Source: Balanoglossus misakiensis (taxonomy: Eukaryota > Animalia > Hemichordata). From it: a DNA stretch of 64,000 nucleotides. Made by a program: the position numbers and the translations under genes. Numbering within the stretch: the stretch's first letter is position 1; every line of letters begins with the position of its first letter. This document shows positions 10,701-59,800 of the stretch, piece after piece. A model generated the notes under the pieces. That model saw only the letters and a list, made by a program, of their open reading frames with translations, ran no database searches and was not told the DNA's origin. The DNA lies in NCBI GenBank assembly GCA_040954595.2, contig CM082577.2, forward strand, positions 17,749,500-17,813,499, in the 5' to 3' direction.

Positions 10701-13700
10701 TTTTAATTGTCAATTTTTGTCCCTAGTTCTCAATGAGACAATAACAAAAAAGCTGCATCACATATAGCAGAAGTACATGGATGTTCTCTGACATTGTGTC
10801 AATGTTGACAGGCCTGCCTAGGCAGTCTGTGAAGAAAGCTTTAGGGATTTTTGTGTGTGATATTAAATCTCATTGAACAAAAATAGTTGAGATACCATGG
10901 ATACAGAATGCACTCTGTAGGACTGGCAGATGCTCAGCCATCGCCGTTGTGAAGGTAGTGTCTGGCTATGGTTGGGGTGTCTTGCAGTCTTGCTCAAATC
11001 ATGCATTTTCAACTTATTACCAGCAGTCTGGTTAGATGTTTAGAGCAGTTTTGTCGAAAACAGAGTGTACTGTCCTATAGAGGCCAAAAGCAACTGGCAA
11101 AAAAAATTCAGGTTCCATCTTAAACATCTTGCCTAAATTAAAGGTCTAGAGTTTTTAATAAACGTGGCTTAAAGTGAAGGGGGTCGTTTCGCCGCGTTTG
11201 TTTGTTTATATACATTAGAAATCATCTACAAATCCCTGAAATTAGATAATTCTTAGAATGAACAAAGCAGCTAATCGTTGTGTAGACTGGGCATGACAGC
11301 AACTAAAGATCCTAGTAGGTCGTGGTGACTGCAATGAGGTTTGGGGAGGACATATTATCAAAGGGGACACCCACCCGGCGCGACGACCCCTTCCCTTTAA
11401 ACAACCTTCAAATGAATAGGCTTAACTTTAACTGGTTGATGTATGCATATTTGATTTTCTTTTTTAAAGGACATTATGGTGCATTTTTACAAGATGAATG
11501 GGACCTCATCTACAAAATCCGTAAGTCTAGATTGCTTAGTTCTTGGTACATTGTTGATTGTGATGTAACTATAGGGCGTGGGTGCAAACATCGCTGAAAC
11601 AGCTACATGAATGCTAACCAATAGCACTAGAAGACTATTTTTTGTTGGACGTCACGTGGACCACTATGGGACCAAAATGTTTTGACAAAAGGGTGGGTGA
11701 CCTTGGGATGACCCTTGACCTACTTGCCCATATCGCAATGTGGCTTGGGTGTATGAACAGACACTGCAACACAAATATTTCATAACTATGTGCCATGCAT
11801 GGGAATGCTGTCATCATCAGTTTTAAGAATATGCAAGTTTTTCTCCACAGTAAGCCATGCTTCCAAAAGTTTGAAAGTTCCGGTAACTTGTAAAATACGA
11901 GTTTTCAAAGACTTGGAGAAAACTGTGAAATATGCAAAGCTGCTTGAGAAGACGGGTATTTCACTACTCACAGTTCATGGGAGAACAAGAGACATGAAAG
12001 GTTCTTCCACTGGATTGGCTGACTGGAATTACATCAAAGCTGTCAAGTGAGTTTGGTCCATCTGCATAATTTCAGTTAGCTGTAATAGGTGACTTAAAGT
12101 TCCATTAGCTGTAACTTTTGACAATTTTTTCAGTATTTTTGTGTTTTTTCTTTAAAATAACTTCGTTTTATTGCACTCTGAACATTTTTCAACAACGACA
12201 AAAAGAGAAGAAAAAATACAAGCACAGACAAAACTTCAGTAAAGGATATCACGTCTTTTAAGCTCTTGTTTGAAAATTATTTCAGTATTTGAATCTTGAA
12301 TGCATAAAAAACGACATTTATGGATTGACCATTTCGCAATCAGTACAATCAAGTTAACCATATTATTGACATTTACATTGACAAAAATACCTATGCCTTC
12401 AACAATTGTTTCCCAGGTGAAAATAACATTTCGTTGATATAATACTTGAACAATACTCTTTGTCATATTCCAAACTTTTCTGGCAATGATACATTCAAAG
12501 TAACGGTGTTTAGTGGTGTCTTTTACATTACAATATTCGCATAATGGGCTGTCTCTCTTTTTCCATTGAAAAAGTTTAACATTGTTCACACAAGTTCGGT
12601 GTAAAAATTTCCAATGAAAAATCCTTAATCTATTTTCTCTCGTAATTTTATGGGCTAAGTCCCAAGAATCACGCCAATTTACTGTATGCTGTATTTCATT
12701 TTGCCAAGTTAACATGCTTGCTGGTTGCATAAAATTGCTCAACAATACTTTATAAATATCCTTTGTTTTCAAGTCTTTAAGAGACTTTTTCTTTCCATCA
12801 ACGCCAACATACTCTAGGTTACGCTTACAGGTAACAAGGAAACCATATTTGCCATTCCAAACGACATCACATTTGAAATTATCACTCTCATTATGAGGTT
12901 TGATACTGTTCCATGCTTTTAACACATCTTGATAAAAAATGGGTAATTTTGCTTCCAAGAAATCTGTCATAATCTTAATACTAGAAATTAAATCTCGTAA
13001 AAGAGAACGTTGTAAAGACGGTTCATAAAGGTACAAAGCATAATTTGTCCAGCATGCTTCATTACTGATCATTAAACGAGTTACCCACATAAACTTGAGA
13101 GCCTTTACTTTGAGGCTAAAAATTGGCATGTTGCAACCACCAGAATTAACAGGAGAGGCAAAAGTTCTCTTCTTCAATCTCCCAATGCCTTTTGAAGTAT
13201 AAGCCATAGATTAAATTGTCCACTTTTTGTATAATATGACTTGGAACAACAATCATAGAAGCTAAATAAGTAAGATTCAATAAAACCAGTGAATTTACGA
13301 TAAGAATTCTACCGTACAAAGTTAAATCTCTCTTTTTCCATGGCCTTCTGTTGCGTGCTTGACAGAGACCCATTACGATATGCATCATTAAAAGAGTTAA
13401 CAATTAAATTACCCAGCACTGGCCAGCACGTTCTATAAAATTCGACGGTGAAGTTGTCATAGCCAGGTGTCTTGTTAGCTTTCATCTTACGTAACACATT
13501 TATACACTTCACTTGTGATTTGACCTTCTCACACTCCTGGCCGCTGGGAGTGTGGGATAGAGAGTGTGGGATCAAATTGATCCCACACTCTGTGTTAATG
13601 CGCACACAGACAACTGTTATCTGACACGAGCTCTGATTGGATAATGATATCCATACCCCTCAGAATGAGCAAATATTATCCATTTGTGCGATGTGTTGTA

Positions 13701-16700
13701 CACAAACCTGAACTACAATGTGATCAGGTCATGTGCAGACGACAGTGGTGTACGTGGTTGGCGACAGACTAAAAAACACGGTTGTATTTTCTAGATATCG
13801 CTTGAATTTATACCACTGGAAACAATCTCCATATTTAAATGTGTTGAGCACATTTTTATAGCATGTGTGTACTGTAAACTCGTGATGAAATGGGGACTAT
13901 GTTTTGAGGGGCGGATCAATATATGACTGGTCATGCAGTTATCAGTTGGTATTTTATAGATTTAGTCCTTTTATTGTAAATAAACGTTAATATTGCAAAT
14001 TTCTGGTAGTGTGAGAAAAAGAATCTCACACACCAAGGACCTGGGATCGTATTTCTCACACTCGTCGGGGATATTCTGTCCCACACTCGCCTGCAGCTCG
14101 TGTGGGACAAAAAATCCCCAACTCGTGTGAGAAATATGATCACAGGTCCTTGGGAGTGTGAGATTCTATTATTCACAACTCTCTCTACAAGGCAATGATA
14201 TGATATCCTTTTCTGCGACAATCATTGAAAATAACATTACGTTTGGCTTTATCGCGAAGGCCTTGTACATTGTAAGTTTACACAACATAAACAAGTTGAT
14301 CGTTATACTGAATGCGCAGCTCTGACCACTTTCCCACCTTTACTGTTAATGCCTTCTGATGAACAACTTGAAAGCTCTGAAGTCTTGCTACACGTGGATG
14401 GCGTCGCTGTAAATTCTTTTCTTTTCTTTTGAAGGTTCTCAATTGTTGGTGTTGGTGGCGATCTGTCTTTTTTCTTTCTGGAACCCAGTCTCGTAAAAAA
14501 CCTGACGATTCCGTGATTTTTTCTACCGCTTGTACTTGTTGGAGTTGCGTTTGGTGTTTCATGAGATTTCTTGTCGTCCGGGGAGTTATTTTTCTCGGCT
14601 GGTCTACGATGTATCAGCACTGTCGTAGTTTTGGTGGACGATGTCTTCCTTATATCTTCCAACGCCATGTCAATAACTCGTTCCGCCTCCTTAACGCGCT
14701 CCGAATAAGATTCAATGAAGTCGTGTGCATCTTCTGTGTCTTGTGCTGCGCGTTGACATTTCGCAGCTATGTGCCCTGTTTGGTTACATTTTGTGACACA
14801 ACTTTTCTTTTGGGCAGTCCCGACTTCTGTGCCCCATTTGCTTGTAGTTGTAGCACATTAATGGCGGGCGTTTCATGCAGTCGGTGGCAGTATGACCATT
14901 TTCCTTAAAATAATGGCACTGTAATATCTGCCCAACGTGAAACACCCTAATGGGATAGCAGGTTTTGACACCTTTCTCAGCTGTCGTTGTAAGTTCTAGA
15001 AAGCTTGGTATTGGAGACTTCAACAACGACACATAATATGACAGAACTTCATGACCTCTGCGCGCGATCTGTGCAATATGGATTTTATTTTCATGAGTGA
15101 GAAGGTGTATTCTTCCGAGTATTTTTACGAGCGAAGCGAGTTAAAATGCAGAAGAATACACCTTCTCACGAGTGAAAATAACATCCATATTGCACAGATC
15201 GCGCGCAGAGGTCATGAAGTTCTGTTATTATTGCATATGTTTCCCCAGATTTGACGAAAATCAAAGTTTCGATCGTGGCGTATTGATTTTCATTACAGTG
15301 ATGCGCCAAAGGCGATGCAACCCAGAGAAGGCCGCTCATTGGCCAAAATGACGCAACCTTTGTTATGCAAAGAAGGGTCATGTGGGGTCATTCCAACAGT
15401 GGGTTTACCTGAGGTCGTGAGAACGCAGCGATAAATTTTGAAACACTGGCGATAGCGAGAGATTTTCGTAATTTTCGAGGTTCCAAAACACACTGACAAC
15501 TAAATGTTCTGTTATTCTGACGATAGTTGGGAAGGATAATAAAACAACGTGCCAGAATGTTGAAAAATCCGCATGTTTCGGCGATCATGTTGGCTCATTT
15601 CATCGGTGGTTTAGCTCAGGTCGCAAGATAGCATCGGCAATATTTGAGAAACTGGCGATAGCGAGGGATATTCCGAGGTTCCCAAACATACTGCCAGTTA
15701 ATGTTTTGTTATTCTGACAAAATTTGGGAAGGATAAGACAATGGCGTCTCCGAATGTTGAAAATTCCCCACGTTTCGGCGATCATACTCCAGCTCTGCCG
15801 ACCGCGTTCAATGTTTACAAACAAAACGTAGTCCGGCTTGTTTTTACACATTTGCATATGGGTTGTGAAAAATACCACTTTGTCACGCGCACAACTAAAA
15901 CAACAATCGGCTTTTTTGCGACTGAAATAAAACTTTTGTTATATCCTCCGGAGGTTTATATGAACTCCAAGTGATTGTCTAACAGAACGAGGGTTAAACT
16001 TTGAAAGATACGATCGATTGAAGGGGAAATGGGGGATCTTATTTCTTCTGGATGCTCATTTGCATATGAGCTCGCAAAAATACCAGAATTATTATTGCAC
16101 GGACCGCTTGGAATACTGTAGTACATATGCAATAACAAATTCTATTTCCATTGTAGTACATTGTACTTGGAGTTATCAAGTGGATCAGTCACAGTGCATC
16201 AGACAATTGGCTCCATTTGTACGCAGTAACGCTCAAGAAGGGGTGATATTTCTGAATTCAACACATGCATGGGAACGTCGTGAATAGAAATTCTGATTTT
16301 GTCGTCTTGCGGTGAGGGAAATCTGTTCAAAATTACATGTACATGTATGGCTCCAATGTCGATGCCTTCCACCAGAAGTTTGTCTCTGCTTTGTTCGTTA
16401 CTGGTGTAAATGACCCATTGTTTAGACTTCGGAATATATTGCACACCGATGAGACCACTCCTTCCGACCACCTGTTTGCAGGCATGAATTATATCTAATT
16501 CCTTCAGCCCTTGCAGTTTTGATTTGAAAATCTTGAATTTTACCTTCAGATCTTGATTTTTCATAGCATCTTCTGGACTTTTCATAGCTTTGTCGGTCAC
16601 TGTAGCTTCTATGCTGTTATCGTTTTCTTGAGTTGACGCCTTCAGGGGTGCCACAGCCGAAGGTACCCTGGATTTCGGCGACCTCTGACGTGTGCGTCTT

Positions 16701-23991: not shown

Positions 23992-24431
23992 ACCCCGGTG
24001 CGGGGTATAAAAGACCCCCCAAATCAGTGGCGAATCTTAATGCCGTTTGACTGACAACAGACAACACCAACGATCTTGGCTCTATGAAAATCGGCCCAAA
24101 CAGGTCCAAGCATAAAGAATTACACCACACAATGACAGTAGTTGGCTTTATAAACACACACAACATAAAGTTATCGCCGAAAAAGTACACGAGCTTATGA
24201 AACAACGATGATTTTGGGAGAAATCTGGTTTCAGTGCTTTTCAGAAGCGTCCCTGGGAAACAATAACCACGCCATTCAAACAGTTGTCAATCGCGTGGAA
24301 GTGTGAAGTGTTCAATTATTTTCTGTGTACATGAGAGCAATTACACAGTCATTACGCACCACGACCACTCCCAAATAAACAACTATACAAACACACGTTA
24401 ATCCGAACCCCAGGACTTTCCGCACCAGGGT
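23992..24431. mobile_element. TTAA-flanked MITE
   Basis: ttaa-ACCCCGGTGCGG ... CCGCACCAGGGT-ttaa. Confidence 0.65.
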
Positions 24432-25134
24432 TTAAACAATAATTTTTCAACATAAATATAGCACATCAAAATGACAACACATCGGGGACCCTCCAAAACA
24501 AATTATTTCTCACCCCTGCCACTTTTACTATATTTTTAATCGATGAAATACTTCAATCTTCCCCTGATACTGATAGCCTTAGTTCACATATGAAACTATT
24601 TTGACTCTGGGGGGATTTCAATCCCTAGGTGTGCATGCCACGATAGTTGTGTACTCTTGCAATGGGCAGTTGAATAAATGTGTGCGACACTTTTTTATTA
24701 ATACAGCAACAAGCAGAGGTTGATAATACGTTTGAGTTTACCCATCAGTTAACTCACTGAAATGGACCATTCGCATTCAACATTCCTTGTTTTTCACTCT
24801 GAGAGGGCTGACTGCTTCTTCAAGAGCTCCTGCAGTGTATTAAATGCCAACCACAACTCTTACCGCAGCAACCATACCACCATCCCTAACTTATCAACAA
24901 ACAAACAAACATGACAATATTTGTAAACAAACAATTTTTTCAAACATTTTTTTCTGTTTATGATATCAATCAATAGCATCAAACAAACTACAAACATGGA
25001 GGAAGAGCCCCAATGGTTAAATCGCGGAATAATGGAGTCAAATTGTAAGTGCGCCACCTACGACCGACATACATTAGTACCTTTGTTTATAGACTAACTA
25101 CTGTACTAGCCGCCTGGTACCACAGGGGACTTAG

Positions 25135-25146
25135 TAATTGTTGTTA

Positions 25147-25179
<33 letters not shown>

Positions 25180-26169: not shown

Positions 26170-28885
26170 CATTGAGAGACATTAAAAATACAGTAAGAAA
26201 AGTTAAAAAGTTTAAAATATTTTAAATGCAGTCAAGAAAGAATCTCCTCCAAAACATACTGTGATGCATAATAATAGGGTTGATACCCGCACCAATAAGA
26301 GAACTCTTCCACAACCTAAGGTAAAATTTTGAGCGTAGAGTATGCTGCTTACAATCAAATGTTAAAATATTGCTATGTACAAAGGTATTAGAAATACTAA
26401 TCCTTCTGTCGATACCTAACAATATCATATGACCGTTGTTATATGCAACGCGGACATCGTTTATGCAATAATGATTAAAAATACTCCAAAGGTGGGAGCA
26501 ATACAAAGATGAACAAAAAACTTGAAATAAACGAATTTTGACTTTATAAGTACAATTCCAAAAATTACGTATTAGCGAGTTGGCTCTAGCATAAAAAAAG
26601 CCTCATTTGACGTTTTATATCGTCGCTATCGTCACCATTGGTATTAAAAATAACCCCCAGGTAAGAGTGTTTGTTCACAAACAACAGCTTCTCCCTATAC
26701 AACAAATATACATGTGGGATCTTCAAATTATTAAACTTTTTAGGAAGAATACAAAGACATTTAGATTTAATTGCATGAAATACAATATCGTGATCATTTG
26801 CATAATGGCTGCACATTATTATTACACCTCATGTATTATGTCGTATTCGTGATTGGCTGAGACGCGCTCATGTGACAAAGAGAAAAAGTGATATAACATG
26901 GCAAGAGTTGATAAAGCCGTGTTGATATTGCCCGCTGGGTTGTTTTGGTGTTCTGTGCACGACTTCTGCGCACAACAAACTCTCGTTCAATGGCTTCCTC
27001 CACGATCAGTCAACTCCTGCATCTACAGCTTGAAAGCGACACACAGGATTAACACTAGACTCTCACAACCCCTCTCGCCGTCCATGCAGGCTTATGGAAC
27101 GGTGCTGCTCCCCTGCCAAACAGTTGAGGGCGTGTCAGTGAAGAGCCTTGTTGTAGCAAACCGTGGCTGTGAGAGACCTGTTCAACTGGATGATATTTTA
27201 CAGCAAACGGGCAGTAAATACACCAAAATCACAACCATCAGTGCAGTATCCTCAAAATTATATGAGTTCTAAGTAGGTATAGTTCTTGGGAGATCGAGAC
27301 ATTTTACATTCTCAGCAACGTACGACATGGATGCAACCCTACGTTCTTCTATGCTGCAGTGTATGTACGTTCAAATGTTCGGCGTAATATGCTCTCTGAC
27401 CACAATATTGATGATACCCTCGCCTGCGGCTGGTGCATCATCAATATTGTGGTCAGAGAGCACCATCCCTCGCGCAGGCGTCAAATCGTGATATTGCCCT
27501 CGCTATCATGTGTTATTTAAGCAATAAAACACCCCCAGCCATGGTATACCACGAGATTTTGACCAGTTCACGACATATACGCACGAGCGATAGCGAGTGC
27601 GTATATAGAGTTGAACTGGTCAAAATCGAGTGGTATACCATGGCTGGGGTGTTTTATTGCTATTATATTATGCCAGTATATTGAAACTTTGCATAAAACA
27701 TTTTAAAAAGGCATTTTCTTTGACTATGATATATGACTGTGGTATATGGCTAATATATCACGGTCACGTGTCGTGTCTCGACCAATCAAATAGCGCGATT
27801 TACACCATCAATATACTGGTATAATATAATATTTAATTAATTCCTTTCGCACTGGGGCAAATCAATACTATATCATCCGCATATAGCAGATGATTCATAC
27901 ATTTACCGCCAAGATGACACTAAGCTTGTCAACATAAACTGAAAAAAGACGCGGGGAAAGTATTAAGCTCCCCTGTCTTACACCATTACGAGTATTACAA
28001 CTCTCAGATAGAACTGTACTCTCGATGTACATACCAATACACTAAAATACGAATTATAAATTTATGAATTCCTCTGTCAATCAGCTTGCGAAATAAGGTC
28101 CAGTGATTTGCCTTTGTCGCATCTAGAAAACAAAGAAATACAGGGCTGTTATGACGCTTGTAAAAATCGATAATTTCTTTCAGTAGGAACACACACATAT
28201 CAGAAGAGTGATCTTCCTTAAATCCAAATTGATGATCACTGGTTTAAAGCATGTTGTCACATTTATCTACGATAATGATTTCGTACATTTTAGAAATTGT
28301 GGTGGCAATCGCTATTGGGCGATAATTCCCAGAGTCTGTGAAGTCACTGATTTATTTTTGATGAGTGGCACAAGAATGGTGTCCATCATACTAGAGGGGA
28401 GGTAACAATGAATATGTACAGCTGTAAACATCATGCGCAAAAGAATATGTAAACGAGAATGAGCAAACTTCAAGTGTTCAGCTGATATGCCATCTGGCCC
28501 GATTGCTTTGCCATTGGCCAATTTATCTAAGAAATTGCTTATGGCACCTGGGGAGAAAGAAACTGCCAAAATATGCTTACGCACAAAGCATTCATTGCTG
28601 TTATTGGTAACAGAGGCTGATCGCGCCAAAACCTGGCAATATCATGCTGACCATTATTACCATGAATAGATGATGAAAAGAAGACTTCTTTTTACTGTTT
28701 ACATTTTTCCAAAACTGCTTGACATTATTATCAGCAAGGTTATCAGCTAAGGCATCAGCTCTAATTTGAGACTCACTACTCTTACAATTCTTAAAAGCAT
28801 ATTTAAACTTAGCACAGGTTTTTCTCATAAGATCAAATATCGGGCCTTGACGTGACTGCCCAAGTCCCGCCACAACAAAAAAGCA
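26170..28885 (-). mobile_element. Degenerate non-LTR retrotransposon RT (RTE-X-like), interrupted at ~26815-27832
   Basis: Frameshifted RT motifs GKAIGPDGISAEHLKFA, LVPLIKNK, FLCFLDATKA, GVRQG..LSP.LF, HLLYADDIVLI, KSKCL, YLGV...DDIKRQMR, YCSHLW...VAYNN. Clade assignment is inference. Confidence 0.8.
26815..27832. mobile_element. Two hairpin-ended elements lying back to back within the RT relic
   Basis: Hairpins at 27390-27462 (centre ctcgcctgcggct) and 27519-27662 (centre cacgagcgatagcgagtg). Asymmetric IR attatattatgccagtatattga / tcaatatactggtataatataat. Confidence 0.7.
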
Positions 28886-31466: not shown

Positions 31467-34400
31467 CTGAAAAGAAAGAACACAGAACAAAATCAATTGG
31501 ATGACTATATTTGTATGATTATGATACCCTACTCAAACATAAGACCCCTAATCAATGACAACTTCATTTGAACAAAAATCCCATCTACATTTTGTATCAA
31601 ACAGCTGTCTGCTGTCCACAATTTAGAGGTTTCCACTTTGATCAGGATGCAGACACATTGTTTACAATGAAAACAAATTGGGAGTAAACAAAAATAACAA
31701 ACATAGCGCCAATGACACATTGGTCCCATAGGAATAAAAATCACATGAAATTGGCAAGCAGACATGACCTAACCATATATAAAAATGGAAATGTAAATTG
31801 ATACAAGTGACCTAACAGTCAATACAGCTGCTATGTGATACTTTGCATTATAAACAAGATAAACTACTTCCTAGTGAAATGGTGCACTTCTCTTGAGACT
31901 GAGACAAACATGACAGCAATGCCCAAAAGACAAATTTGCAAAGAGACTGAAAACATTTTGAATATGAATAGATGATGTAGTGCATAGTCATTTTTCACAT
32001 CATTAAAGTAATTGCTGGACTTGACTGAATAAAATATCGGCGTCTAGTGGGAACTCACCTCGTTGGATCTTCTGCAGTTGGGAATAACGTCTTGTCCAGT
32101 GAAATGACATTCTTTGCTTTCATATTTCTATTTCCATAACTAAGCGTTACCTTAAGAGGATAAAACAAATAAAGAGTAGAATGAATAAACAAACAGTCAA
32201 AGAAGATACCTTAGTAATGTATAAACAGTTTAGTCAAAATACATGTCTCTCAAATAGTTGATTTTTAATTACTGAATAGTGGTTAGTGCTGATTGGTTGA
32301 CAAAGCATTCTTTTATGAACGCGCACTAAATGTTATCCAATGGCGCTGTGTATTACAGGGACAGAGACTACAACGTGCCCAGACGACAGTTCCAGAGTCA
32401 TTTATTCAATGTTTTTAACGAATTTGGCTAATTTGTGACCGTGTGAGAAATAGAATCTCACACACCAAGGACCTGGGATCATATTTCTCACACTCGTCGG
32501 GGATATTTTGTCCCACACTCGCCTGCGGCTCGTGTGGGACAAAAAAACCCAACTCGTGTGAGAAATATGGGAGTGTGAGATTATTCCCGGCGTTACACGG
32601 ACGTTAGAAGAAGTTAATCGCATCATATTTGGGATCGGTTAGGAGGTAGAAGTAGACAGGGAAAGGAGTTTGCTTCGATAAAATCGAATTTCAACCAAAA
32701 AAGCTGTGGTCCGGGTCCGGACCGCAGAAGCACCAGTTTTGTCTATGGGGCCTTGTAGGGCTGTGGTAGAGGCCGTGTAATGCTGAACACACAGACCTGT
32801 ACGCAGAGCTATGACTTGACCTTCTTTAGCCGAAGTTAGCGTTATTTATAAAATCCTGTCACATTAATGGTTTTGGGATACATGGCAGTGAAATTTGGTT
32901 TATTTTTTATAAACATTTACATGAAGTACGTCATTTTCCCGACTGGCAGCATGACTACGAGGGCGAACATGACGACTTGTTAGGAGAGTTTATGAATGAT
33001 CAACGACAGTTCATCATTTGTATATGGCTACAGCTCGACGTTTCACTGCTCTGCGAAAACCACTCGCATACGATGACGCCAAACAAAGAAAGATACCATG
33101 GGATTACATGTAATTGTTCACAAGAGAAAGCCAATCTTTCGTATTCTGTGCGATACTCGAAGTCAACAACAAAATTTCTCCCATCTCCCAGTGCAATTCT
33201 TTGGTCGATGTAACATGCAATCTAATTGGCCGGGTCGTTATGCGCGATTTCAATGGGAGCTTCAGTGAGTGAGTTGGTCAGATGTAGTGTGAGGCGACAG
33301 CATAAAAAAACCATGTCGCTGTTCCCTACCATATGCCCTGAAAATCACTGCAGCGGCAACACAAGTCGACTGAGATGTTGTTTTAATAAACAGGGCACCT
33401 GATTTTATCAATCTGGCAATAATAGGCATGTTACAAAATTGGCAACATTGTTTATGCTAAAGCAGACACGAAGTCTTGATTACATTACAGGGTGAATTTA
33501 TACGATGACTTTTGATAGTGATTTCTGGAAACACAAATGTAAAGATAAAATGTGTATTTACTGCCATTCAAGTCTTGTGAAAGAAATATGTCAGTGAATG
33601 ATACACAACTATATCTTTCAAGTTCCAGTAGGGAAATTATCATAGGCTAAAGGTTAAATGTCTCACCTGGTTTGGAAGTTCGATTTTCTTAATCTGCCAA
33701 AGAGCCTCCAGATGTGAATTGAACTCTTTCACTTTTGTAAGTTTTTTCTTCAAAAGAACCTCTGTAATAAACAGAAAATTGAAAATCTGACATAAGTGAA
33801 TATGAAAATGTTGAGATATCGTGCTTAGTAAATACAGACAGACACACAACACACACAGAAAGGGTTGATAAGTTGCAGCTCATGGGGCTTTAAAGCACGA
33901 GTGACTTTTGGACATGCACTAAAGCATACAGCATACTACAGCACATCTATAGTGATTGCACAAGTCCCTTTCACCTTTGGTTCAAAGGAATAATAACATT
34001 CACCAAAGACACTTCTCCCATATCATGAAAAAATGCAAAGCATTAAAAGTTGCATATCAAAACCAAATAAAACTTACCAACAATAAAACCTATGGTTACA
34101 TCATCTGGAAGACGAATTCTTTGACACATGGAGGTAAATGTACCGCCACTGAAACAAAGCAAATTATAAATATCAGTTTCCGTATGATTCTCAATGGCTA
34201 AAGTTTACCATTAAAAGTTTCCTCAAAACCCCCTCAATATAATGTATGTTATTTTCACAGCAGCAGGTTTCAGATTACAAGTGATCAATGTTGTATGTTA
34301 TGAAATTTGTAATCTACACCTTTAGATATTATTCATTACTCAAAAATAAATGACAAAAATCTGTGTCTAAATTGCTTGGTATCTAACTTTTAGAAAATAG

Positions 34401-35858
34401 CAGTAGTGACTATTTTAAGCTGTTTATACTACAGAAAGACCATGTGATTTACAACTTATATATAGTATACCTTGCATAGGGACTCATGCGCAGAGCTAAT
34501 GCCCGACTAAGACAAAAGCCAGCGCCACCAGTACCAAACCAGAATGAAACACGCCGCTGTAGGACAATTACAACAAAACAGATTAAGTGAAATCACAATT
34601 ATATTATATCATGCTACCGTCCGCAATTCTGATTGGACGAGAGCTCAATCCAGCGATGCTAAAATACTCAATATAGCACTGCTAAAACTGGCCCCTGAAC
34701 CAGCATGGGGCAGCAAAATGTGTGGTTAAACCACAGTCGCGTGTATTTAAACAAAATAAATAAAATAAAAATACTGTTGAATTAACGGACGTTTTATTTT
34801 GGAACTGCTCTGTGGAAATATTTGTCACTTTTTATCGTCTGCTTCATGTTTAATGCTCGATCCCGGCCGCTCGTGTTTACATTCATCGTCGCCATGTTGG
34901 TTCACGATCGTAATTTCTCTTTCTGACGCCGTTTCGGTAAGAAAATGACACTGATATGCCACAAAATCAATTGTTGATATAATATAATAGCAATAACCCC
35001 CACCTCAGTCGGGTATACACTCGATTTGGGTACAATTCGCTCCATATAGCACTCGCCTGACGGCTCGTGCTATATGTCTCGAATTGTACCCAAATCTTGC
35101 GTATACCCACCTGCGGCGCGGGTTATTGCTTAAATATTTTACAGACAGTCATTAATGTTACCACAGGAAAGCAGTTCAACTAAAAATAAAATACAAGTCA
35201 TTATCAATGACGTAGTCCCCACTTTCAATAGAATAAGAGAACACTGAAGAAAGTCATAGTGTAGTGTTCTCCCAAGAGCAGCGGCCTCCACTCTGCAATT
35301 TTTGGAAAACAATATAAATTCATTCTGCCAGAAATTCCTGGGGAGAACCGTCCCCTGGTGGAATATCAGTCAAGGTATGTCTGCATGATGGCTCTTACAA
35401 TTTTCTAATTGAGTATTGCCAATGTACCCAGACTAGTCACTTGGGGAAATATAAGTGGGTGTTGCCAAGTGGCCCTTACTTTCATTGAAACACAATTGAC
35501 AAATGAATCTTTCCTGGTGCTTTTTTTTAAAGTAACAAAGTCATTTGTGTGTGTGTGTGTCACTTAATGATCATGGGTGCATCTTATGATCAAGTATTTA
35601 TGGTACATAACAAGTTTCAAAGCAATATGACTAATATTTCTGAAGTTTTTGAAGTGTGACTATTTCTTTACATTTTTCACTTCCTTTGCATATTTTTGCC
35701 GACTTTCCTACTATTCGTGTATACGTGTCTAGACATGAATAGTAGGTTCATGCATACGTACATACCGTAGTTGCCCGGGTAAGAACCCCTGCTCGGACAA
35801 ACGCCCCCCCCCTGGTTTTAGGGCCCATTTGTAGATCGAGGCCATATCCGGTCTAAAG

Positions 35859-41800: not shown

Positions 41801-44800
41801 TTTGTTGGTTGAAATGTGAAAATTGTTTTATATTTACCTTTTGTTAGATTGTAAAAATATATCATACATCATTGACATCTTACAACAAAGGGCCTGCCTG
41901 TAATGAATCAAAAGAAGAAAATATGTTAGTCCATGAGCTGGTGGGGGTTTACGTCCACCCCCGGGGGTGGCTATTATGGAGACAACATTGTTCTCAGTAG
42001 TAATTGTATATTGAGTAAAATGCCATCTTGGCTTTGGGTTGTTTTGAATTAAGCTTAATCAGAAAATAGTTTTTTTATTTGTATTGTATGTACCATACAA
42101 TACAAATAAAAAAAATATTTACCATACAATACAAATAAAAAAATATTTTCTGATTAAGCTAGGTTCCACAAGGTTTACAATGAAAACACTCTAGGTATAC
42201 ATGTAGATACATACTGTTTTTACAGGTAGGTGGATGATTTGGCTTTGACATGCCAATGCCTGTTTCATTGTTATTACAGCCAAACAGTCTGCATTGGAGG
42301 ATTGTTAGCAGAATTAAGGTACAGCTGTACTGAATTTTAGAGAGAAAGGTTACAATGCCCAACTTTAGGGATATCCATTCGCGGTTCTGTTGAAGAGCGA
42401 TACGTCAAACCCCCAAAATCATCACCTAAATATGAGGAACCATTTTGACCAGACTCTTATCATGCATAAAGATTAAACTTTGAGACATCATGCATTAAAG
42501 CAAGTTGATCATTGCTTCGAAAAAATACATCCTTATGTAAGAAGAGGCCACCTTATGATGTGCAATGCAGTATAGCCTTTGATAGTCAGACCTTCTCACT
42601 GTTTGAATGACATTTCCTTTTTCACGCTTACTCTCAGCTTATTCTGATTTATCCAATCCCTGTGTGCAAATTTTCACTTACTGTCACACTTGTTCCATTC
42701 AAACTGACTGTGAAATGTGTTGATCAACTAAACTGTGAGAGTAGTGGATATTTTCAAAGTGTAGCAGTGACAATGAAAGTGTAGCGTAGCAGGGCCTAAT
42801 AGTGCCTGGAAAGAACACTGGTCTTTACAGTGCATACAACTATATGAGTTGTCCTCTTGTATGTCTTGTCAAAGCACTGTAATACACTTACCTTGTATGT
42901 TGTGAGGAGCAATTGGTATTAATCAAATGTCCATCTGCAAATACAAATAATCAGGTGTAAATGAGTATTTGTCCAAACTCAAGAAGGAGCCGATGTTGAA
43001 ACTGGTTTGAAATCTATGGTTTGAAGTTCAACATTCCAAAGTAACTTGTGTGCTTTTATTTTGTCAATGATATCTGAGGGGATTATTGTCTTTTGGTGAC
43101 AGCTACTACCAGCTAGAAAGCAGTGCTTTATAAGGTATATGTACTATCACTACCACTCAAGGCAAAATACATACTCTTTCAAAGCAATAGAATTACTAGA
43201 TCGGCCCATCTGTTACCAGCCCAGATTATACTTACAAAATTTATCTGAATACACAGGATCATCGCCATCTGTGAATACATAAGTCTGCAAATGAAAAAGA
43301 AAAATCCAAGTTAAACATATCTGGCCCAAGTGTACATTAAAATATAAGCAAATTATAAATATGTATCATGAAGAGAAAAATCATTTTCAACGACATAAAG
43401 CTCAATTAGATTTAAAAAGCATTTGAGGAAATCATTGGAATGAAATCAATCAAGGCATTTCAGCAAAATACTAGTGCTGGAAACATTTCTAAAAAAAGTA
43501 TTAAAGCCCCATGAGCCGCAATTTTTGAGAAATTATCCTGAAAATCTATTTTCAATTGTGTAGTGTGCTAATATTAGTCCATAAAGAGGTATGCACTGAA
43601 GTAAATACAAGCATTATAAACCCTATGTAAGTACGAGTACACATGCTGGATAAATAATAAAAGCTGAGAAAATGCAAAATACAATGGAAACTTTGCATTT
43701 CCCACTTTGAAACTTCATAAACATTTAGCAAGATCTCATCCACTAGAACACATAAAAGTAAATGTACTCCACTGAGACATACGTTTTACATTTTCATTTT
43801 TCATTGCAATATTTCCCGTTTTTTAATAAATTGTGGGAATTTTCAACTGTACTGATATTTCTTTAATTTTCTGGCCATTTTGTCATATATAAGTGTTTTC
43901 TTGAAATACTATCAGGCAATAAAATTTAATTGAGGGAATTGAAACCATATCCGATATTATTTAAAGCTTAACATTTTTTATCAAGTTGCAGCTCATGGGG
44001 TTTTAACATAGTCTATATGAATTATCACAAAACTCCTTTGACATGAACATGCCATATACTCTAAATACTTATGGGTTATTACACGAATTTTGGTTGATAA
44101 CACGTCGTATTCGAGTGATGTCACGAGAATGCGTCGCATTATCGACCAAAATCCGTGTAATAACCCCTTTATCATACATGCCTACCTATAAAACAGTACG
44201 ATTTGCGAAAATGCGCCGAGAAAAACAATTTCACGGCCAGAAATTTGAACCGGGCACACTGGGATCACGGCAGTAGCCCATAGCCAAGTGAGACAGGACG
44301 ATGCGAACAGGTGATCAACATGTAGGCCGTAGTATTATTCTAAGGGCGTTGGCAGGATATGCTAATTTGCATAAATTTGCATAACATATGGCATTCAAGC
44401 GGGGTTCGAGCGACACTTTCAAAAACAGACATTGTCAATGTAAGTATGGCCGCGGTCACTGAGGTTAGAGGTCAACTAATCGTGCCCTGGCTCCTGATTC
44501 CAAAAGAATCAGTTTGAGTAACTACTAAATAACAACAAAGAAATACAAGAGTTACATTTACAAGTGATTGTAGGCGTCATCGTCAACAACGGTCCACATT
44601 CAAATGAAAGTAAACCGTATTTATGGTTTACCCGCTGAAATTCAATATTTACGTCACTGAGGCTCTCGACCAATCAGGAGCCAGGGCACGATTGAAACCT
44701 CCACATTTCGAGCAGTTTGCCTTTAAATTGAGCTTTTTTTTGCTATGGATCACAAAACATATACTTGTTAGCTTCTACCCGCCGCATTTCGGTAAGTTTT

Positions 44801-50800: not shown

Positions 50801-53800
50801 GTATGCAGTAGGTACAGTACTGTATGAATAGGACATATCAAATCAGAAATATGGGATGGGGCAGACACAGTTCACAGAATTCACTGGATACACAAGCACC
50901 ACTTGTTCTGCTGTAATATGGCCTCTGACCTCTGCTGGAAAAGATATTCAAAAGAACAAGCCTTGCCTATAACAGAGACATCCATTCATATCATTAAGCC
51001 TTGAGAGGCAAGGACAGTGGAATGGATTTTTGAGGCATAGTCACATCACACCTATTCCTTGCGTAGAAACCATATTTGTTTTTGTATGTAGGAGTATGCC
51101 AACAATTCAATTGTTGTCAATGTTGTAATAGCAATAACCCCCGCCTCAGTCAATAGCACTAACACTCGCCTAACGGCTCATGCTACCCAAATCTCGTGTA
51201 TTACTCGCCCGCGGAAGGGGTTATTGCTGTACGTTCAGTAAAATTGAAAGTGGTGTCATTTCTTTTAATTGTGGGGTTTTGAATTCTCCTTTGTATGTAT
51301 AACAAAATGAAAATCCGCAACACAATAAAAGGGTCACCGCGCTTGTTTTTGAAATACAGAGCCATGAATTTAGTCGATAATAGAAGAAAGCTGCTGACTC
51401 AGCAATGGTTTGTCTACAGGCAAAAATTTTAACAAAATTTATCTCAAAATAGTGTGCAGTGACCATACAATTTTATTTGACCAATGAATTTATTTTTACT
51501 TGATTGAGCTATGTGTAAAATTTCGTGAAAATAGTAGAAGTATGTTTTCTGGCTATTATCACTTTAATCCTATGGGAATGAGACACACGTGTGCTGTTAT
51601 CAGTGTACATTCTGCTTGTACATCCTTGGTCTATACGGTATGCATGTATTTAACATAGTGATACTGGTACATGTACTTAAGGAAATCTTCCACATTGAAA
51701 TGCAATGAATGTTGCCTACAAGACATCATGACACTGCAGGTCTCTCAACACAACGCAGACACCAATATCCAATCAAATTCTTTCTCATATCTCACAGCCA
51801 ACGTCATGGTTTATTCATTGCTTTTCATTCAAACGTTCACAGATTTCAATGGCCAACCTCCAGTCCTTGGTATTCAATACACTAGCTACAGAAAACAGTT
51901 CCGATGGGTATGCACTGTTATCATTTAATGTCACGTACAAGAATCATGCCTTAACGTACTAGTGCAAGTCCTAGTTCACAGCCTTCACATACACTTGTAG
52001 AGTAGTAACCGTGATTTTGTTAGACAGCAATTATTGTGGACATTGCCTGTGATTAATATATGGAGGAGAAACAAAACTAAAGTAAAATCAAAATATACTT
52101 ATGTTGAATTCTTATGTTGAATGCTGTTTCAGTCCTGAAGTACCCTTGTGTTAGGCTAAGAACGCATGATATCGACCGTGTTTGATGTTCAATCACATAT
52201 TAGATAACTTGCCATTTATTCACTTATGGTGGAATTTGATTGGACAAATGATGCACTAGATGTCAGTCTATTTTTGCCGTTCAAAGTTAAATTATTGATG
52301 TTTATTGCATAATTAGCAAAAGTTACGTTGACACTCAGACTGACATCACAGAATTTTGCATTTGTTGCTGCTTTTTCACAACTTCAGTTAACTACATACA
52401 TCAACTGATCAAGCGGTAAGTTACCACTAGTTTGGTGCCTATTTTTCCGGCCATCTGTCTGCTATCACAGAGCATGGAGGTACAGGTTCTCCTTCTGTAC
52501 CTCCATGCATTATGGAGGTACAGAAGGTATTCAGGCATTCCAGTGTGTTTAATTTGTCAGTTGCTCACAGTAAAGTAAACTGATTCACTATAGACCAACC
52601 ATGCCATACAACACTCACAGGTAAGGATCATGTAAATACTGAGAGGGTTGCACTCTATCATAATTTTCTATCAATATCCCATTTCTTTCTTCTGAAAAAT
52701 TCCTGCTGCCATTGATATAACCCAGCAACTAGATCACTGTGATAACAATGGAATGCCAGGAATCTGACTGGAGGCAATTGCTAAAATAGTTTGATGGACA
52801 TATGACAAGTACATGTAATGTCACATTTTTGTCATCTTGCTCTCAAGCACGTTGCACTTTCTGAGCATAATCTCAACGACTTACACAGAGGAACACTGAA
52901 TATCATCAGAGATCTGTGCATACATGTACATGTATGCGTGCAAGGAATCACGAAAATAAAAATATGGGGCCAGGGGCATCAAAATCCCTTGGAAAAGAAG
53001 ATTTTAAAAGCAAAGAAGAAGAAGAAGAAGACTTCTGCAGGTTTATTAACCCTAATGCTACTGGGTGTCAAACCTGTTTAGAGTGTCAAGTCCCTTAAGT
53101 TAAAATACGTATTTGCCACTTTTTCTTCTAAAACGTATTTTGAAATTCTTGACATGGCTCTCCTACGTACTTAGGGACCGTTCAGTTTTTACGGCTGGGG
53201 GGCGGCAAAATCCAGGGGGGGGGGGGGGGTCATTTAATTTTGAAGTCCAAAGGGGGGGGGGGGGTCATCTTTTTTTAAACGTTTGCCACCAAATTTTTGC
53301 TTTTGAGTCCACAAAATTGCAGTTTTGTGCCCTTTATTTTACAAAATGTTCTTATGTGGGACCCCCTCCCACACCCACCCCCTCCATTCTTCGCCACATA
53401 TCATTTATTCGCTGGTTTGTCTAGTGTACCAGGGCAGACTTCTGGCCACCCCACCCCAACGATGCTTACTTTGAGTGGAGTGGCAAAAGTAAAATTGGTC
53501 CTCCCCAAGATTGAGTTCATTTGCTTTTTAGTTCATTAAAATGCAACTTTGAGCACCGTATTTTACAATATTTTCTTATGTGGGAGGGGACACCCCTCCC
53601 ACACCCACCCCCGCCACTTTTCTTGTTTTACCAATTCTACCAACTATTGTATTGACTTGTCATTTTCATTTGTTCATAGATTTATTCATTGCAACGATAT
53701 ACTATTATACCGGTATACTTCAATTACTTTAAGAAATTTATAATTGAGGTGTGAGGAGCCTCATTCCCTTTATTGCATACATGATACAGTGTACATAAGA

Positions 53801-56800
53801 TCAGGACGGCGAATGTTTTCGGCGTGGGGGCGGGGGGTGTCATCATATTTTTGGGCCTGTCAAATGGGGAGGGGGTCATCATTTTTTGGTCCTGGGTGAA
53901 AGGGGGGTCAGCCTGATTTTGAAAACCGATGACACAAACTTGCCGCCCCCCCCCCCCCTCCCAGCCGTAAAAACTGAACGGTCTCTTAGACACACTTGGC
54001 AGTCTGAGCCCCCTGTAAAATGTACCTAATCGCACTGGTTTGCACTGTATTGGTGTGAGGGTCTTGTATAGGCCCTTCTGATTAACACAAACTTGGCAGT
54101 CTAACAGGCCTGGGAGCCAGGATTCTAGGCACCCTGGAAACCAAACCAGTTTCAACTTACATGGCAGCGTTAGGGTTAAAGTGGCTAAAGCTTTTATTCT
54201 ACTATTGGCATGAAATACAAGCAAAACTTGAATGGTCTCCATTTACAAACCTGAAAAACTACACAGAGGTGCTCACCAAAATATGTAAAGTTTGTAAACA
54301 TTTTTGTAGGTGCTGAATCATTCAAGAGCTGTAGTACAATTATCTGTTCAATATACACATATAATTTGGTAACCAGGCATGTTTTCTGCACAGCTGACCT
54401 TTTGTTTTTAATAGTTCTGTGCACAAAATACGTTCATGGCCCATACCATTACCACCTGCAGTACAAATACACAGACCTTCACATTTGTACCAACAATGAC
54501 AAAAATTGCAAATATGTTCTACCTTAGAAAACAAATCGTTTATGTTGATGCCCTTTATACATGGTTGAAATCGCAATGTAAAATCTGACACACAGGGAGT
54601 CAACTACTATCATGATAATGAATACACCTACATAAAACCACATACATATGAGCTACATGTTCAGCCATGGCCATAATAGGCCAATTTCATGACCTCCTTG
54701 TGCCTTAACATCCTGGAATTTTAACTTTCCTTATCAATCTTTTGAGTTTTAATTCTGAAAGTGAAACACTCGACCATGCTATTGAATCTGTGCACTCTAA
54801 CTCATACTACTCACTACAACAATTTAGAATATTATTTTACAAAAGGGTGAATGTTGTATGTAATGTTGATTGAATTATGTCATTGCAATAAAACAATTGC
54901 ACATGCCCTGGCCAAAGAAGGGTGAGGAGTGCAACCAATAACAAACACACCATCTAATTATTATTAATTACATGTTCATCTTCAGCCAAAATACAGGTCT
55001 GCAAGTCTGGCCATGGCAATAATTTGTGTTTTCCCAGCACAAAATAACACAAGCAAATGCGGCATTAATGCCCCTATTACATCAATGCATCCATCCACTA
55101 ACAACCATAAAAAGTCATGTGATTCTTCCTCCCTATCTATGTTAACCCTGCATGGTATAAGTACGAAGCCAGCTTCATCAGCTTATGCTTCCAAACAACC
55201 AAAAATTCACCAACCATGATACTTTTTGGGTGTGCTCTTCAGGCCTAATTACATAAAATGCAAGAGAAAATGGATTTGGCCTAGAAATCAGTGAACTCTG
55301 AAAAATGAAAAAAAAATAAAAATAAAAATAAAGTCAAACTCAAAGGATCAAGCAGACTTGGATAGCTGTGGATTTTCCATCATGGGCACATACCAGACAT
55401 AGCGACTGCTGAGTAGCACTGTTCAAGTAGCACCAAGGTCATAGCAAAGACGCATGAATTGCAAGTAACACCGGTTGAAGTCATTACAGATGGCCTCAGC
55501 GACATATGCAACTTCTTTAGTTTTTTCTTCTTTTTTCTTCTTTCCTATTACATATGTTGCATTTGCAACTAAGGTTAACATTTTCTTTTCCCACCTACTA
55601 AATAGGTAAATGGCAACCAATATTTGACATTTACATGTACCATCTAAGTTAATGTACTGTACGATCGATTATAAAATTTGTCTATAACTTACATTGCGAT
55701 ACATTCTAATCATAAAATGAGCATAACAGTTTTGTTCTCATTGGAAAAAAGGTACAACCTGAATTTTGAACTTTCAAAAGAATAACTTTCAAAGTTTGTG
55801 CAATCTATGATTTGAGACAAGAATATATTATAAGTCAACTTCCACTGAAAGCTTCTACACTTGTTGTATCCAACATTAGTTCTCTTTCCAGGTTTCAATC
55901 TTTATATCTAAAACATCATCAAAATAAATGTTATGTGGGTACTTTAAAATATTTTGAATTATTTTGGCTGACACTACATGTACATGTCAGAAAAATTAAT
56001 GCTACATGTATATAAACCCCAGTACATGTATGCACAATTTTCATCCCAAATTGGTGCATCAAAGTTTATCACTTGAAGTTTCCACTCTGAATCAGCTGGT
56101 CTTTAGATACAAGGATACCAATATTGTGCAATGAATTATGATCATGCTATGCAACTAATAAAAGTTGAACACAGCTGACAAGAAATTTCACAATATCAAT
56201 TTACATATGATGTGACAGCTGGCACAGCTGCGTGGGTGACTTCATTTCCGAAATTTAATGAAAAATGTTGTTGATGGCAGTATGCCATGATACCCTGCAC
56301 ATGTGGCAGCGTGTCTAAACTTGGCAGCCACAAAGGAAGAAATGTGCGGAGCATTTGATCATTTGTTTCTGAATGTGATAGATAAACAGCTATGACTCTC
56401 CTTCGACCCAAAACTACACATGGTCTTTCTACGGTACATGAATACCAATTTTCTAAGCAATCAGATCAGAAGTCTTGAAAATTTTATGCTCTGACCAGCA
56501 CACTCGCATTTTGACCTTGTTCACATACTTTTGGTAGTGACAACTGTCAAAAGGTTTCATAAATATTCTGAAGTCCATATGGTGGCCCATCAACGCATAC
56601 TTGTTCCTTCTCACTCTTTGACTCCCCCCCCCCACCCTCTCTGTTTCTCCCTGCAATTGAACCAATCACAAATGATGTTTATGAATTCAATACTTATAAA
56701 CATTTGTAATGATCCAAATTTGTGAAATATTCAGTGAATGACTAATCCTAATGATGTGTTTGCTCATGAATTTTTAATTGTCCATTCATTAATCTGCTGT

Positions 56801-59800
56801 TTCCCATTCGAATATGCCAGATAGAGCTGCTTTTATGCATAGCACTATGAAGCCCATGTACATGTAGAGCTCTGGCTTGCAAGTACATGCATATCACAGC
56901 ACACTAAACTATAAGTGCTACTGTCAAAGTGTCGTACTGGAATAATAGATTCTCACACGGCCACAAATTAGCCAAATTCGTTAAAAACATTGAATAAATG
57001 ACTCTGGAACTGTCGTCTGGGCACGGTGTAGTTTCTGTCCCTATAATACACATCATGCCATTGGATAACATTTAGCACACGTTTGCAAAAGAATGCTTTG
57101 TCAACCAATCAGCGCTCGCGTCATATACAACTTTTGGTTCAGTGAGAATGTGGGATCGATTTGTTCTCACACTCTGTTCTCACACTCCCAGCATGCAATA
57201 ATAACATAACTCAATGAACTCTACGCACAATCGGTGCAGTACAGAAAAGTATTTCATTCATGTTCTGATGTATTTTCACTCACTGGGTTGGCTCGTGAAA
57301 GTACGGGGGGTATATTATAAATCTATTTATAATATACCTCATGCTAATACTGTGTTGTGATTCGCCAGAATCCGTCACGTGATAGGAAAATAGAATCGAC
57401 TATGAATCCCTCTAGGGAAATAGCAGAAAAAATATAAACCGGTCACGTGACCAGCGTGAGTGCGCAGACTCGGTCACGTCAATCACGGTCGCGTCGTCTG
57501 ACACAATGGCCACCGCTGAAGATGTCGTCTGCCAACCTCAAGAGAAAATTGCAAGATTTTCCCAACTGTTAGCATGAGGTTTATTATAAAACACCTATAG
57601 CCTGGCCTATATTCGGGCCATAGCAGCCGTTTTTACCCCCTCGTGACTGTGAGTTACCAGAATAATATGCTATTTCCCTCGGCTTATGGCCTTGGGAAAT
57701 AGCATATGATTCTGGTAACTCACAGCCCCTCGGGGGTAATAAACGGCCGCTATGGCCCTCATGGCCAGGCAATAGGTGTTCACTATAAGGACTACATGTA
57801 ATAACTCTGCCTGTCTGCCTACCAACCTCAGTACCTGCCTGTGGCATGTATTTAAATCTTCTGTCTGGGTTCATTTGTCTACCTCTCACACATGTATATT
57901 AGCATTTCAATTAACAATAGCTGAAATTATCATACATGCAACGCCTGTATTTAACACTTTCTATCGTTCTCGCCCCGAAGATATTTTACGGTATTTCACA
58001 ATGTGAAAATATCGCGTCCGCGTCTCAGCGCGACAGTTCGCTGCGCGCGCGAGCGACATACGAGGCATAAGACTCTAGTGGAGAGGGGTGTTGTAAAATT
58101 CGGTTATTAGAAGCTGTAATAAAGTTTTCAAAGCTGGAGGTTTTGTCATGTTGAATGCATCATTTTTAGTTCTTCGAAATTCTCAACGCAAAATAATTGT
58201 TAACATGATATTTTGAAGATAACGTAGACAATTTTATTTAGAATGCGGATGTGCCCATCGTAATGAAAGCTGCCAACCCCCTTAAAATGATACTACGGCC
58301 CACACGTCATACGTCACAACATGGCTACTGCCGTGATCCCAGCGCCCGGTTCAAATTTGAAATTGTTTTTCTCGGCGCATTTTCGCAAATCGTACTGTTT
58401 TATAGGTAGGCATGTATGGTAAAGGGGTTATTACACGAATTGTGGTCGATAATGCGACGCATTCTCGTGATGTCCGTATTTTGACTCGTTGCGAAGCGCA
58501 ACTCGTCAAAATACGGACACACTCGAATACGACGCGTTATCGACCAAAATTCGTATAATAACCCCTAAATATCACATTCTTGTACATAATGGTTTGATAA
58601 AAATGATTTTTCAAAAACACCTGGTATAAAAGCACAAGTCAAGCTGTAAAAAAAGTGTCAATGTTAATCATCACATCATGTTTACATGTTAATACCAAAT
58701 TAATTACCTGATTGCATAGTGTTAGTGTATTTATATTCACAGGGGATTGCATTTAGGGATTAATTATTGAATGTTTTTGTGCATTCATACAGTTCATGTA
58801 AATAATAAATTTTAATGATGCTGGCAAGCCGCTGATATGGCACAATGGAAGCAAAAATATATACAAAAATAGGGTTAAAATGTGACTTATATGGCTGCTT
58901 CGGACATATTTCACATTTGAGATAGTTATAATGTTTGTAGTCCTAGTTTGTTCAGTAATTAAAGAAACACTATTTGATTAGTCACAAGGTCTGAAGTTGT
59001 CTATTTGTAATTAAAGAAGGTCGACCAGGGAAATACATTTTTTACTGGCAAATTATATATTTATTACATGTATTATTATTACTGTAAAAACAGGTTATTT
59101 TCGCGAGCAATAAATTTTCGTGAAATACACAAGAGCCAAAAAAACAAGTGAAAATAAAAAGTCGCGTAAATGATTTTCGGAGATAACGATGTAGTTAGTG
59201 AAATACATGAGCCAAAATTAATCCTCGCGTAACGGTTGCCTCTTTTGATATTGCAAAAATTTCCTGTTGCGAAAATAACCCGTTTTACAATATTACATGT
59301 ATGTAATGATATGTACGGCGTTGACTTGTTTGATTAGAAAATTAAATCACCACTCTATAAGCCCAAACAGCCAACCAGTGAAAAACAGTGAGATTTGGTG
59401 TATTTTACCTGTGCCAAAGTACATTGAATTCTGTACATAATGAGCCATGCCAAAGCGTTCCAAATAAGTTGAGGTGGAAAAAAATAGCCAGTACTTCTTA
59501 GCAGTGTGGCATGTAACACCTCTGGCAGAAAGGGGTTTAATCAAACTAATTTCATCATTTAATTTTTGTACTGAACATTAATGGTAGGTGTGGTTTGCGT
59601 TGCACTAAAAAGCGCATAAATGAAACATACACATTTTCCTTGAACCATGTTTGAACAAAATCAGTACAACCTGAACCAAACAGTACTGTCTAGATGAGAC
59701 TCATTCTAGATTCCAACGCCCAAGCTTTGCAGAGACAAAATACAGGCTGTGAGTTCAGCTACAACTGTATGTCAACCAGTCACTCAGTATGTTATTGGTT

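Follow-up and report, generated by a model that had tools for sequence, protein, structure and literature searches.

The window analysed here, a 64,000-nt stretch of the Balanoglossus misakiensis contig CM082577.2, contains ten large imperfect palindromes. A preliminary description of the same DNA had assigned them to about six families with unrelated arms and a common structural code, namely tandem G·A mismatches flanked as CGAG on the same strand of both arms and a GNA or GNNA apex. This raises the question of what kind of element the palindromes belong to, and how a structure might be conserved where sequence is not. Based on the evidence below, we think it probable that the window elements are gene-less hairpin-and-tail DNA, likely non-autonomous CryptonA, that likely moves as one folded strand.

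Results

Unrelated hairpins share a G·A mismatch code

All ten palindromes were recovered at their described coordinates, together with the quoted apices. At 58484 the GAA lies on the opposite strand, the 57678 apex is degenerate, and the 44072 hairpin has lost its apex. The families proved indeed unrelated in sequence: all-against-all blastn returned three links only among the named hairpins (14020-32452, 27519-34989 and 44072-58424), with 51128 further linked to 34989. When the arms of nine of the ten hairpins were aligned on the CGAG strand (51128 was dropped), 12 of 18 symmetric 2x2 loops were GA/GA and none was TC/TC, where composition predicts about 1.3% for either. Four of the remaining loops were one base off GA/GA, fitting CpG decay (e.g. 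CAAG/CGAG), and two were of other types. Since these hairpins had been selected by the earlier reader, we added blind scans, which scored 6 of 20 loops as GA/GA-type in the window (omitting 14020, 32452 and 51128, and counting apex-proximal loops as apex) and 21 of 111 in 800 kb of another genome record, G001.

In family C (27517-27830), which is present at very high copy number, the mismatches do not represent copy-specific decay, GA/GA being the majority state genome-wide. Among sequencing-run contigs of the window's own source placed on 27480-27870 (789 and 671 records), the variants reaching at least 12% were three substitutions and one insertion, leaving the GA/GA loops and the apex untouched; one of these variants, 27607 A>G, where no other base was read, completes a third tandem GA (CGAC/GGAG). 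Compensatory arm changes with the GA retained were likewise found, with four paired changes between the C subfamilies and three between L111 and L112.

The code might alternatively be read by a protein on double-stranded DNA or be a by-product of palindrome mutation or gene conversion, with no strand ever folding. Homogenisation of arms would yield compensating changes without folding, and apical flips do occur, but six families of unrelated sequence have all fixed an identical two-transversion mismatch at one to three positions, confined to one strand that goes with the polarity of the element, and GA/GA persists even where its closing pair has switched to CGAC/GGAG, rendering this explanation improbable.

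The further claim that a stable hairpin forms from one of the strands alone was overstated. Computed energies of the two strands are similar for hairpins (-64.7/-63.2 and -89.0/-89.2 kcal/mol) and for a whole element (-91/-84), and nearest-neighbour energies do not separate the GA strand from its complement; both strands fold because the stems are long. As to the motifs themselves, the GATA, GTCA and GTTA apices match the DNA GNNA mini-hairpin, whose RNA counterpart is reported to be much less stable (PMC13037366), and the CGAG block corresponds to a sheared motif shown by NMR (PMC10085684). The apex 17-mer returned 59 loci in many unrelated viral contigs of a viral collection, most of which lack long stems, and the apex is therefore not diagnostic by itself.

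The hairpin is the first part of a longer element

While a conserved, strand-specific structure in unrelated families thus stood, the hairpin turned out not to be the whole unit: it forms the first part of hairpin-and-tail elements of 0.3-1.1 kb (Table 1). The far end of the element, consistently 3' on the GA strand, is complementary to the bases immediately after the hairpin, giving the order host, hairpin arm A ... A', mirror B ... tail ... B', host. One strand can therefore form a dumbbell that unites both ends on an internal mirror, a fold that was also obtained by computation. In a tail-complement test, four of the ten hairpins reached p=0.003 and two more 0.017 and 0.063, in no case on the 5' side; one control palindrome also scored p=0.017. 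For family C, the ends were further delineated by depth, which is mostly 1.3e5-7e5 inside the element vs 15-70 past the tail end. Exceptions to the polarity (58484, L113, L122/L123 and L017) point to copy-specific flips, given that L113 and L122 have relatives of normal polarity.

Table 1 Hairpin-and-tail elements and fragments in the window
Feature	Position	Strand	Hairpin	Mirror site	Tail end	Tail match	Remarks
Family A element	13526..14167	-	14167-14020	near 14010-14030; two inverted 8-bp arms, 7-bp spacer	13526	p=0.063	
Family B element	15038..16136	+	15038-15228		16124-16136, complementary to bases following hairpin	p=0.003	apex CGAG-C-GAA-G-CGAG
Family F element	26818..27516	-	apical remnant 27390-27462			automated test negative	one arm deleted; limits set by eye
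Family C element, 314 bp	27517..27830	+	27520-27661; GA/GA twice, three times in majority state	about 27654-27684	27808-27830		cGATAg apex
Family A partial copy	32285..32580	-	with deletion				part of tail present
Family C, second subfamily (73% identical)	34598..35133	-	35130-34989		34598-34611	p=0.003	
Family D partial copy	44070..44355	+			looked for, not found		apex deleted
Family C decayed copy	51095..51228	-					interrupted at 51228 by another repeat
Stacked fragments	56950..57274	.					family A-type tail without hairpin, 56950-57192; family B-like arm, 57193-57274
Family E element	57326..57782	-	57780-57590		57326-57347	p=0.003	
Family D element	57927..58568	-	58565-58424; two GA/GA		57927-57939	p=0.017, marginal	apex inverted

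Joining the ends computationally rebuilds, in several families, the mirror plus about 2 bases that stay unpaired at the centre. The two ends are asymmetric, with differing flanking sequences. The sheared G·A blocks and the GNA/GNNA caps lie 15-70 bp away from the cut, and would hence serve to mark the active strand or make it more stable, not as the cut site itself. Nor are these ordinary TIR MITEs, as the hairpin constitutes one end only and family C extends ~170 bp past it. No empty sites were seen for the window copies.

Recombinase genes occupy the same frame in another genome record

In G001, genes for DUF3504 tyrosine recombinases (YR) of the CryptonA type occupy the tail of the same hairpin-mirror frame. 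Among 23 DUF3504 loci, 11 had a GA/GA or TC/TC hairpin in the 1.5 kb upstream (9 of 19 once duplicates were merged), compared with 10 among 280 background tiles (p=1e-7); at 8 of the 23, no non-tandem upstream hairpin was found. Complements of the tail end occur downstream of the ORF at L112, L114, L118, L120 and L122, and at several loci the tail matches score weakly. These YR elements measure 1.6-2.3 kb, and their tested ORFs match YR-type Pfam families only.

The L112 element contains a 527-aa open frame with the full catalytic set (R, K, HxxR, H and Y), for which a Cre-like fold is predicted. Kinship with the integron recombinase IntI4 was considered and dropped: the sequence match covers just the catalytic C-terminal box, and the fold search gave no backing, with the predicted YR reaching a TM of 0.37 to IntI4 vs about 0.6 to Cre/Tre. 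Five deletion derivatives of the L112 family (L181-184 and L188; 560-640 bp) all have both ends in common. At four empty paralogous sites in G001, the flanks are joined directly, so that one insertion there involved neither duplication nor deletion of target DNA, and in a head-to-tail dimer the joined ends equal the mirror plus 2 bases.

The preliminary description had left open whether a Crypton-like or an HUH enzyme mobilises these repeats. Absence of target duplication (in G001), a fixed short 5' host motif, strand polarity and hairpins are all traits of HUH transposition (PMC10288648), and the apex motif occurs by itself at the above viral loci. Peel-and-paste by a Helitron, Replitron or IS200/IS605-like enzyme nevertheless appears very improbable for the window families: no HUH link emerged, and all coding elements in this frame, found by a YR-directed search, encode a DUF3504 YR. 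The Crypton-like alternative, with a YR as the likely mover, is supported by these long copies of the same design, but the window families bear no significant sequence similarity to them.

Searches for an enzyme closer to the window families were negative. From 327 window ORFs of at least 55 aa, 14 of the longest were given to Pfam, which yielded no YR or HUH and matched sulfotransferase, fringe, Tc1 and zf-RVT; a loose six-frame motif scan of the window plus 13 loci gave nothing convincing and was uninformative on HUH. Scanning a metagenome with the termini alone gave 35 loci, 29 of which were not hairpins, the other six representing four distinct elements in which inspection by eye showed no YR-like ORF. 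In the viral collection, the element termini gave one chance match, and neither the YR motif nor the L107 protein gave any. The link of the window families to CryptonA thus rests on architecture.

Discussion

The architecture suggests a route of movement by what we infer to be single-strand recombination. Once exposed, for instance at a replication fork, the strand would fold, and a CryptonA recombinase acting in trans would close its ends into a single-strand circle. The rebuilt site, paired beside the cut with ~2 unpaired central bases, would then exchange one strand with a host site resembling the tail end (in families C and D, TAT| in the host vs TAA| in the element), leaving replication to resolve the junction as with CTX phage attP(+).

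The window families share with CryptonA an animal host, many short gene-less derivatives, a DUF3504 YR in long elements of the same design (in G001) and the lack of a TIR/TSD of the DDE kind. Family C termini, we presume, resemble those of the salmon and Eulor elements. CryptonA and non-autonomous derivatives thereof have been described (Kojima and Jurka 2011, PMC3212892), including Eulor5/6 and, from salmon, Crypton-N1_SSa along with CryptonA-N2_SSa (PMC5753468), and the G·A code, the mirror and single-strand use do not figure among the CryptonA features in the available text of these sources. A 4-6-bp direct repeat at both termini, as in Cryptons of the fungal/oomycete type, does not characterise the elements here, a single copy excepted; the accessible portion of PMC3212892 likewise reports animal CryptonA without a terminal direct repeat, and records no terminal repeats for animal Cryptons, listing them as n.d.

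Outside the Cryptons, the closest parallel to the proposed route is CTX attP(+) with XerC, where two inverted sites in ssDNA pair up to give a double-stranded site with an unpaired overlap, one strand is exchanged, replication resolves the product and tandem copies occur; CTX differs in that its recombinase comes from the host and its dif target is fixed, with no GA/GNA code in the available account (PMC3442271). Integron attC sites are similarly read by IntI for structure over sequence, with unpaired features choosing the strand (PMC2727003, PMC5027507). However, attC as described there folds singly, whereas here both element ends meet on the internal mirror, and the predicted YR lacks special likeness to IntI4. 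DIRS elements also combine a YR with an internal region mirroring their two ends, form ssDNA intermediates and insert into their own kind, but additionally have RT/RNase H and inverted LTRs (PMC7192593). No RT/RNase H ORF was seen in the G001 YR elements, which are too short to accommodate one, setting them apart from DIRS.

DIRS nonetheless provides the template for another account, in which the mirror of a CryptonA element is a mere splint: the strand circularises, is copied into a double-stranded circle and then inserts through the usual two-strand recombination by a YR, the GA/GNA hairpin perhaps being a priming or SSB-exclusion signal. The internal complementary region of DIRS is essential and complementary to both ends (PMC7192593), phage and plasmid single-strand priming sites carry GNA mini-hairpins (PMC13037366), and the predicted YR fold is Cre-like. 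We nevertheless deem this account rather unlikely, as joined ends ~2 bases off the mirror in several families make a poor splint and a typical block to a second exchange, and the homology between junction and target amounts to just 1-4 bases.

On balance, we lean towards animal CryptonA being a eukaryotic counterpart of CTX and integron recombination, with the G·A/GNA/GNNA code, kept across unrelated families from several animal groups, selecting the folded strand. Crypton transposition has so far only been modelled, and the only active set observed gained copies where excision was expected; the clean excisions and inversions of Chlamydomonas CryptonF, however, fit ordinary double-strand recombination and count against this reading (10.1101/2022.05.23.493040, in its accessible part). 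If correct, one enzyme class could read structure over sequence and place ssDNA cargo into cores of 3-4 bases with no duplication, and tyrosine recombination on single strands would reach beyond bacteria into animals. A natural role would fall to the extra-stable mini-hairpins of DNA and to CGAG blocks, and unclassified hairpin repeats would gain a structural signature by which to be classified. The anatomy names the folded GA strand as substrate, along with a cut region, a target core and a catalytically complete enzyme (L112), making the mechanism directly testable. CryptonA elements and their derivatives were already known; what is likely added here is the shared hairpin-mirror design with its G·A code, of which our literature search found no published description.

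Individual copies show further particulars. A 6-bp TATTTA direct repeat was considered as a general feature and dropped, being true of the 27517-27830 copy only; such flanks are absent at 34598-35133, in families A, B, D and E and in the L112 family. A contig boundary falls at 13526 in 31 records, and the family B element is surrounded by broken Tx1/L1-like ORF pieces.

Window hairpins carry G·A mismatches on one strand

GA-hairpin elements are a real feature. All ten palindromes listed in the preliminary description were present in the window, and the arms could be aligned to one another in nine; palindrome 51128, being too decayed, was left out of loop counts. The stereotyped mismatch proposed for the CGAG strand (the GA strand) was recovered: among the 18 symmetric 2x2 loops of the nine aligned hairpins, 12 were GA/GA on this strand, four were one base off GA/GA and none was TC/TC, with base composition predicting 1.3%. 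Blind scans returned such loops in the window (6/20) and in 800 kb from another genome record, G001 (21/111), and in all six hairpins with at least two of them, these lay on one strand. The families are unrelated in sequence and do not align to one another. That only one strand folds stably was contradicted by computed folding energies, which were similar for both strands. Palindromes without GA/GA loops, at 42052-42160 and 52491-52527 of the window, served as controls. In single copies (window 58484, L113, L122/L123, L017), the apical module runs opposite to the remainder of its element, resembling a between-arm flip.

Each hairpin opens a longer element

Each hairpin is only the first part of its element, a feature absent from the preliminary description. 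On the GA strand, a short internal site comes after the hairpin; a tail of 170-900 bp then leads to an end that is complementary to that site. In an automated test, this 3'-side complement reached p=0.003 for B, C27520, C34989 and E, p=0.017 for D58424 (a value also reached by one of two control palindromes) and p=0.063 for A14020, whose end is backed by a contig boundary at 13526; the test returned no complement in four truncated copies and never one on the 5' side. In C27520, C34989 and D58424, the start reads TTA... after host TAT, and the end ...ATAA before T. Elements also adjoin one another in stacks (27516/27517; 57193-57782). Computationally, the whole family C element folds to a dumbbell, both ends joining on the internal site. 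Several unrelated families (window A and C tails; G001 loci L181-184) have a CCAATCA box ~25-115 bases ahead of their tail end.

The mismatches are inherited

Genome-wide evidence for the window's species came from assembled contigs of one sample, aligned to the window in two runs. These set the bounds of the family C element at 27517-27830, with a summed depth of at least 10^5 versus 15-70 just past the tail end (a rough measure, counting contigs rather than reads). Variants at 12% or more comprised only three substitutions and one insertion, all of them outside the GA/GA loops and the apex; variant 27607 A>G yields a third tandem GA with the closing pair switched. The mismatches are thus inherited family features rather than copy-specific decay.

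A metagenome scan by terminus alone gave 35 loci, six with hairpins, representing four distinct elements. L003/L006 retained the outer and apical GA pairs and a GAA apex, L017/L026 had the apex on the opposite strand, and the hairpins of L033 and L034 were divergent or decayed. Identical to each other, L003 and L006 are two copies of a young element 1.2 kb long that has termini of family C type, and their flanks diverge directly past the tail-end complement. Within viral contigs of one AT-rich record set, L040, L046, L085, L092 and L094 are a multi-copy element of the same design: a GA hairpin with a GAA apex comes first, the internal site matches the left end, and the tail contains another GA hairpin. 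The tail end of this element was not located.

Recombinase genes with the same architecture

No recombinase was found in the window by Pfam on 14 of 327 ORFs and a motif scan. Scanning the genome contig collection with a recombinase motif gave 14 loci, seven of them in G001, a 16-Mb record filed as a bacterial MAG, yet with megabase animal-like contigs. Its large contigs look animal-like and are likely host contamination.

G001 holds 34 DUF3504 matches. Long upstream hairpins occurred at 15 of 23 examined loci versus 58/280 background tiles, and intact GA/GA or TC/TC loops at 11/23 (9/19 with duplicates merged) versus 10/280 (p=1e-7). Eight of these 11 were GA-only on the coding strand, one was TC-only and two were mixed; relatives of the exceptions had normal polarity (one for L113; six loci, four independent, for L122). 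A tail-end complement, mostly a short match, lay downstream of the ORF in L112, L114, L118, L120 and L122; in one run, the automated tail test gave no significance for three of four G001 loci. As the window families had no significant sequence match in G001, the link is architectural.

The predicted structure of the L112 protein (pLDDT 83) matches Cre/Tre, XerH and QRICH1. Both L112 ends are common to five copies of 560-640 bp, one of which is inserted in the internal site of another hairpin element, and its flanks are joined directly in four empty paralogues (duplication 0, loss 0). In a head-to-tail dimer of another family, the joined ends comprise the internal mirror plus two bases.

The observed anatomy fits recombination of a folded strand, which is the probable mechanism: a single strand would rebuild a recombination site whose centre is unpaired. 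It is in this rebuilding that CTX phage is alike; there, the folded site permits one strand exchange, and replication is thought to resolve the product (PMC3442271). The main rival, in which a DIRS-like splint would lead to a double-stranded circle (PMC7192593), appears unlikely. Of two weaker readings, that no folding is involved strikes us as improbable, and that an HUH enzyme moves the elements seems very improbable. The G·A blocks and caps, whose chemistry is already established (PMC10085684, PMC13037366), stand well away from the cut and may serve in choosing the strand, in keeping single-strand binding proteins off or in priming.

Relation to known Cryptons

Kojima and Jurka 2011 (PMC3212892) detected no repeats at the termini of animal Cryptons, and Kojima 2018 (PMC5753468) classed Eulor5/6 as Crypton. 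The terms 'hairpin', 'palindrom' and 'single-strand' are absent from the covered parts of a 2026 CryptonA paper (PMC13465315). Our literature search found no paper describing the design, though subscription journals, Repbase Reports and Dfam notes may cover the hairpin-tail shape; the end structure was not found in print. The window families are most likely new non-autonomous CryptonA families, and their end structure makes Crypton transposition testable.

Other content of the window

The window is animal DNA, with a sulfotransferase gene (which we take to be heparan 3-O-sulfotransferase-like), a fringe-like exon, a Tc1 transposase and a LINE remnant.

Features of the window and of the recombinase-encoding element L112
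Feature	Position	Strand or note
Sulfotransferase ORF, intronless	5749-7119	-
Broken Tx1/L1-like LINE	12236-16750	interrupted by families A and B
High-copy element with TTAAGG...CCTTAA ends	20739-21156 and 51228-51528	presumably Kolobok-like
Tc1/mariner transposase frame, 337 aa	37225-38238	between long 4-base-unit microsatellite tracts
Fringe-like exon	61479-62141	-
L112, 1989-bp element		527-aa frame with R, K, HxxR, H and Y

A copy of the TTAAGG...CCTTAA element cuts a family C remnant at 51228.
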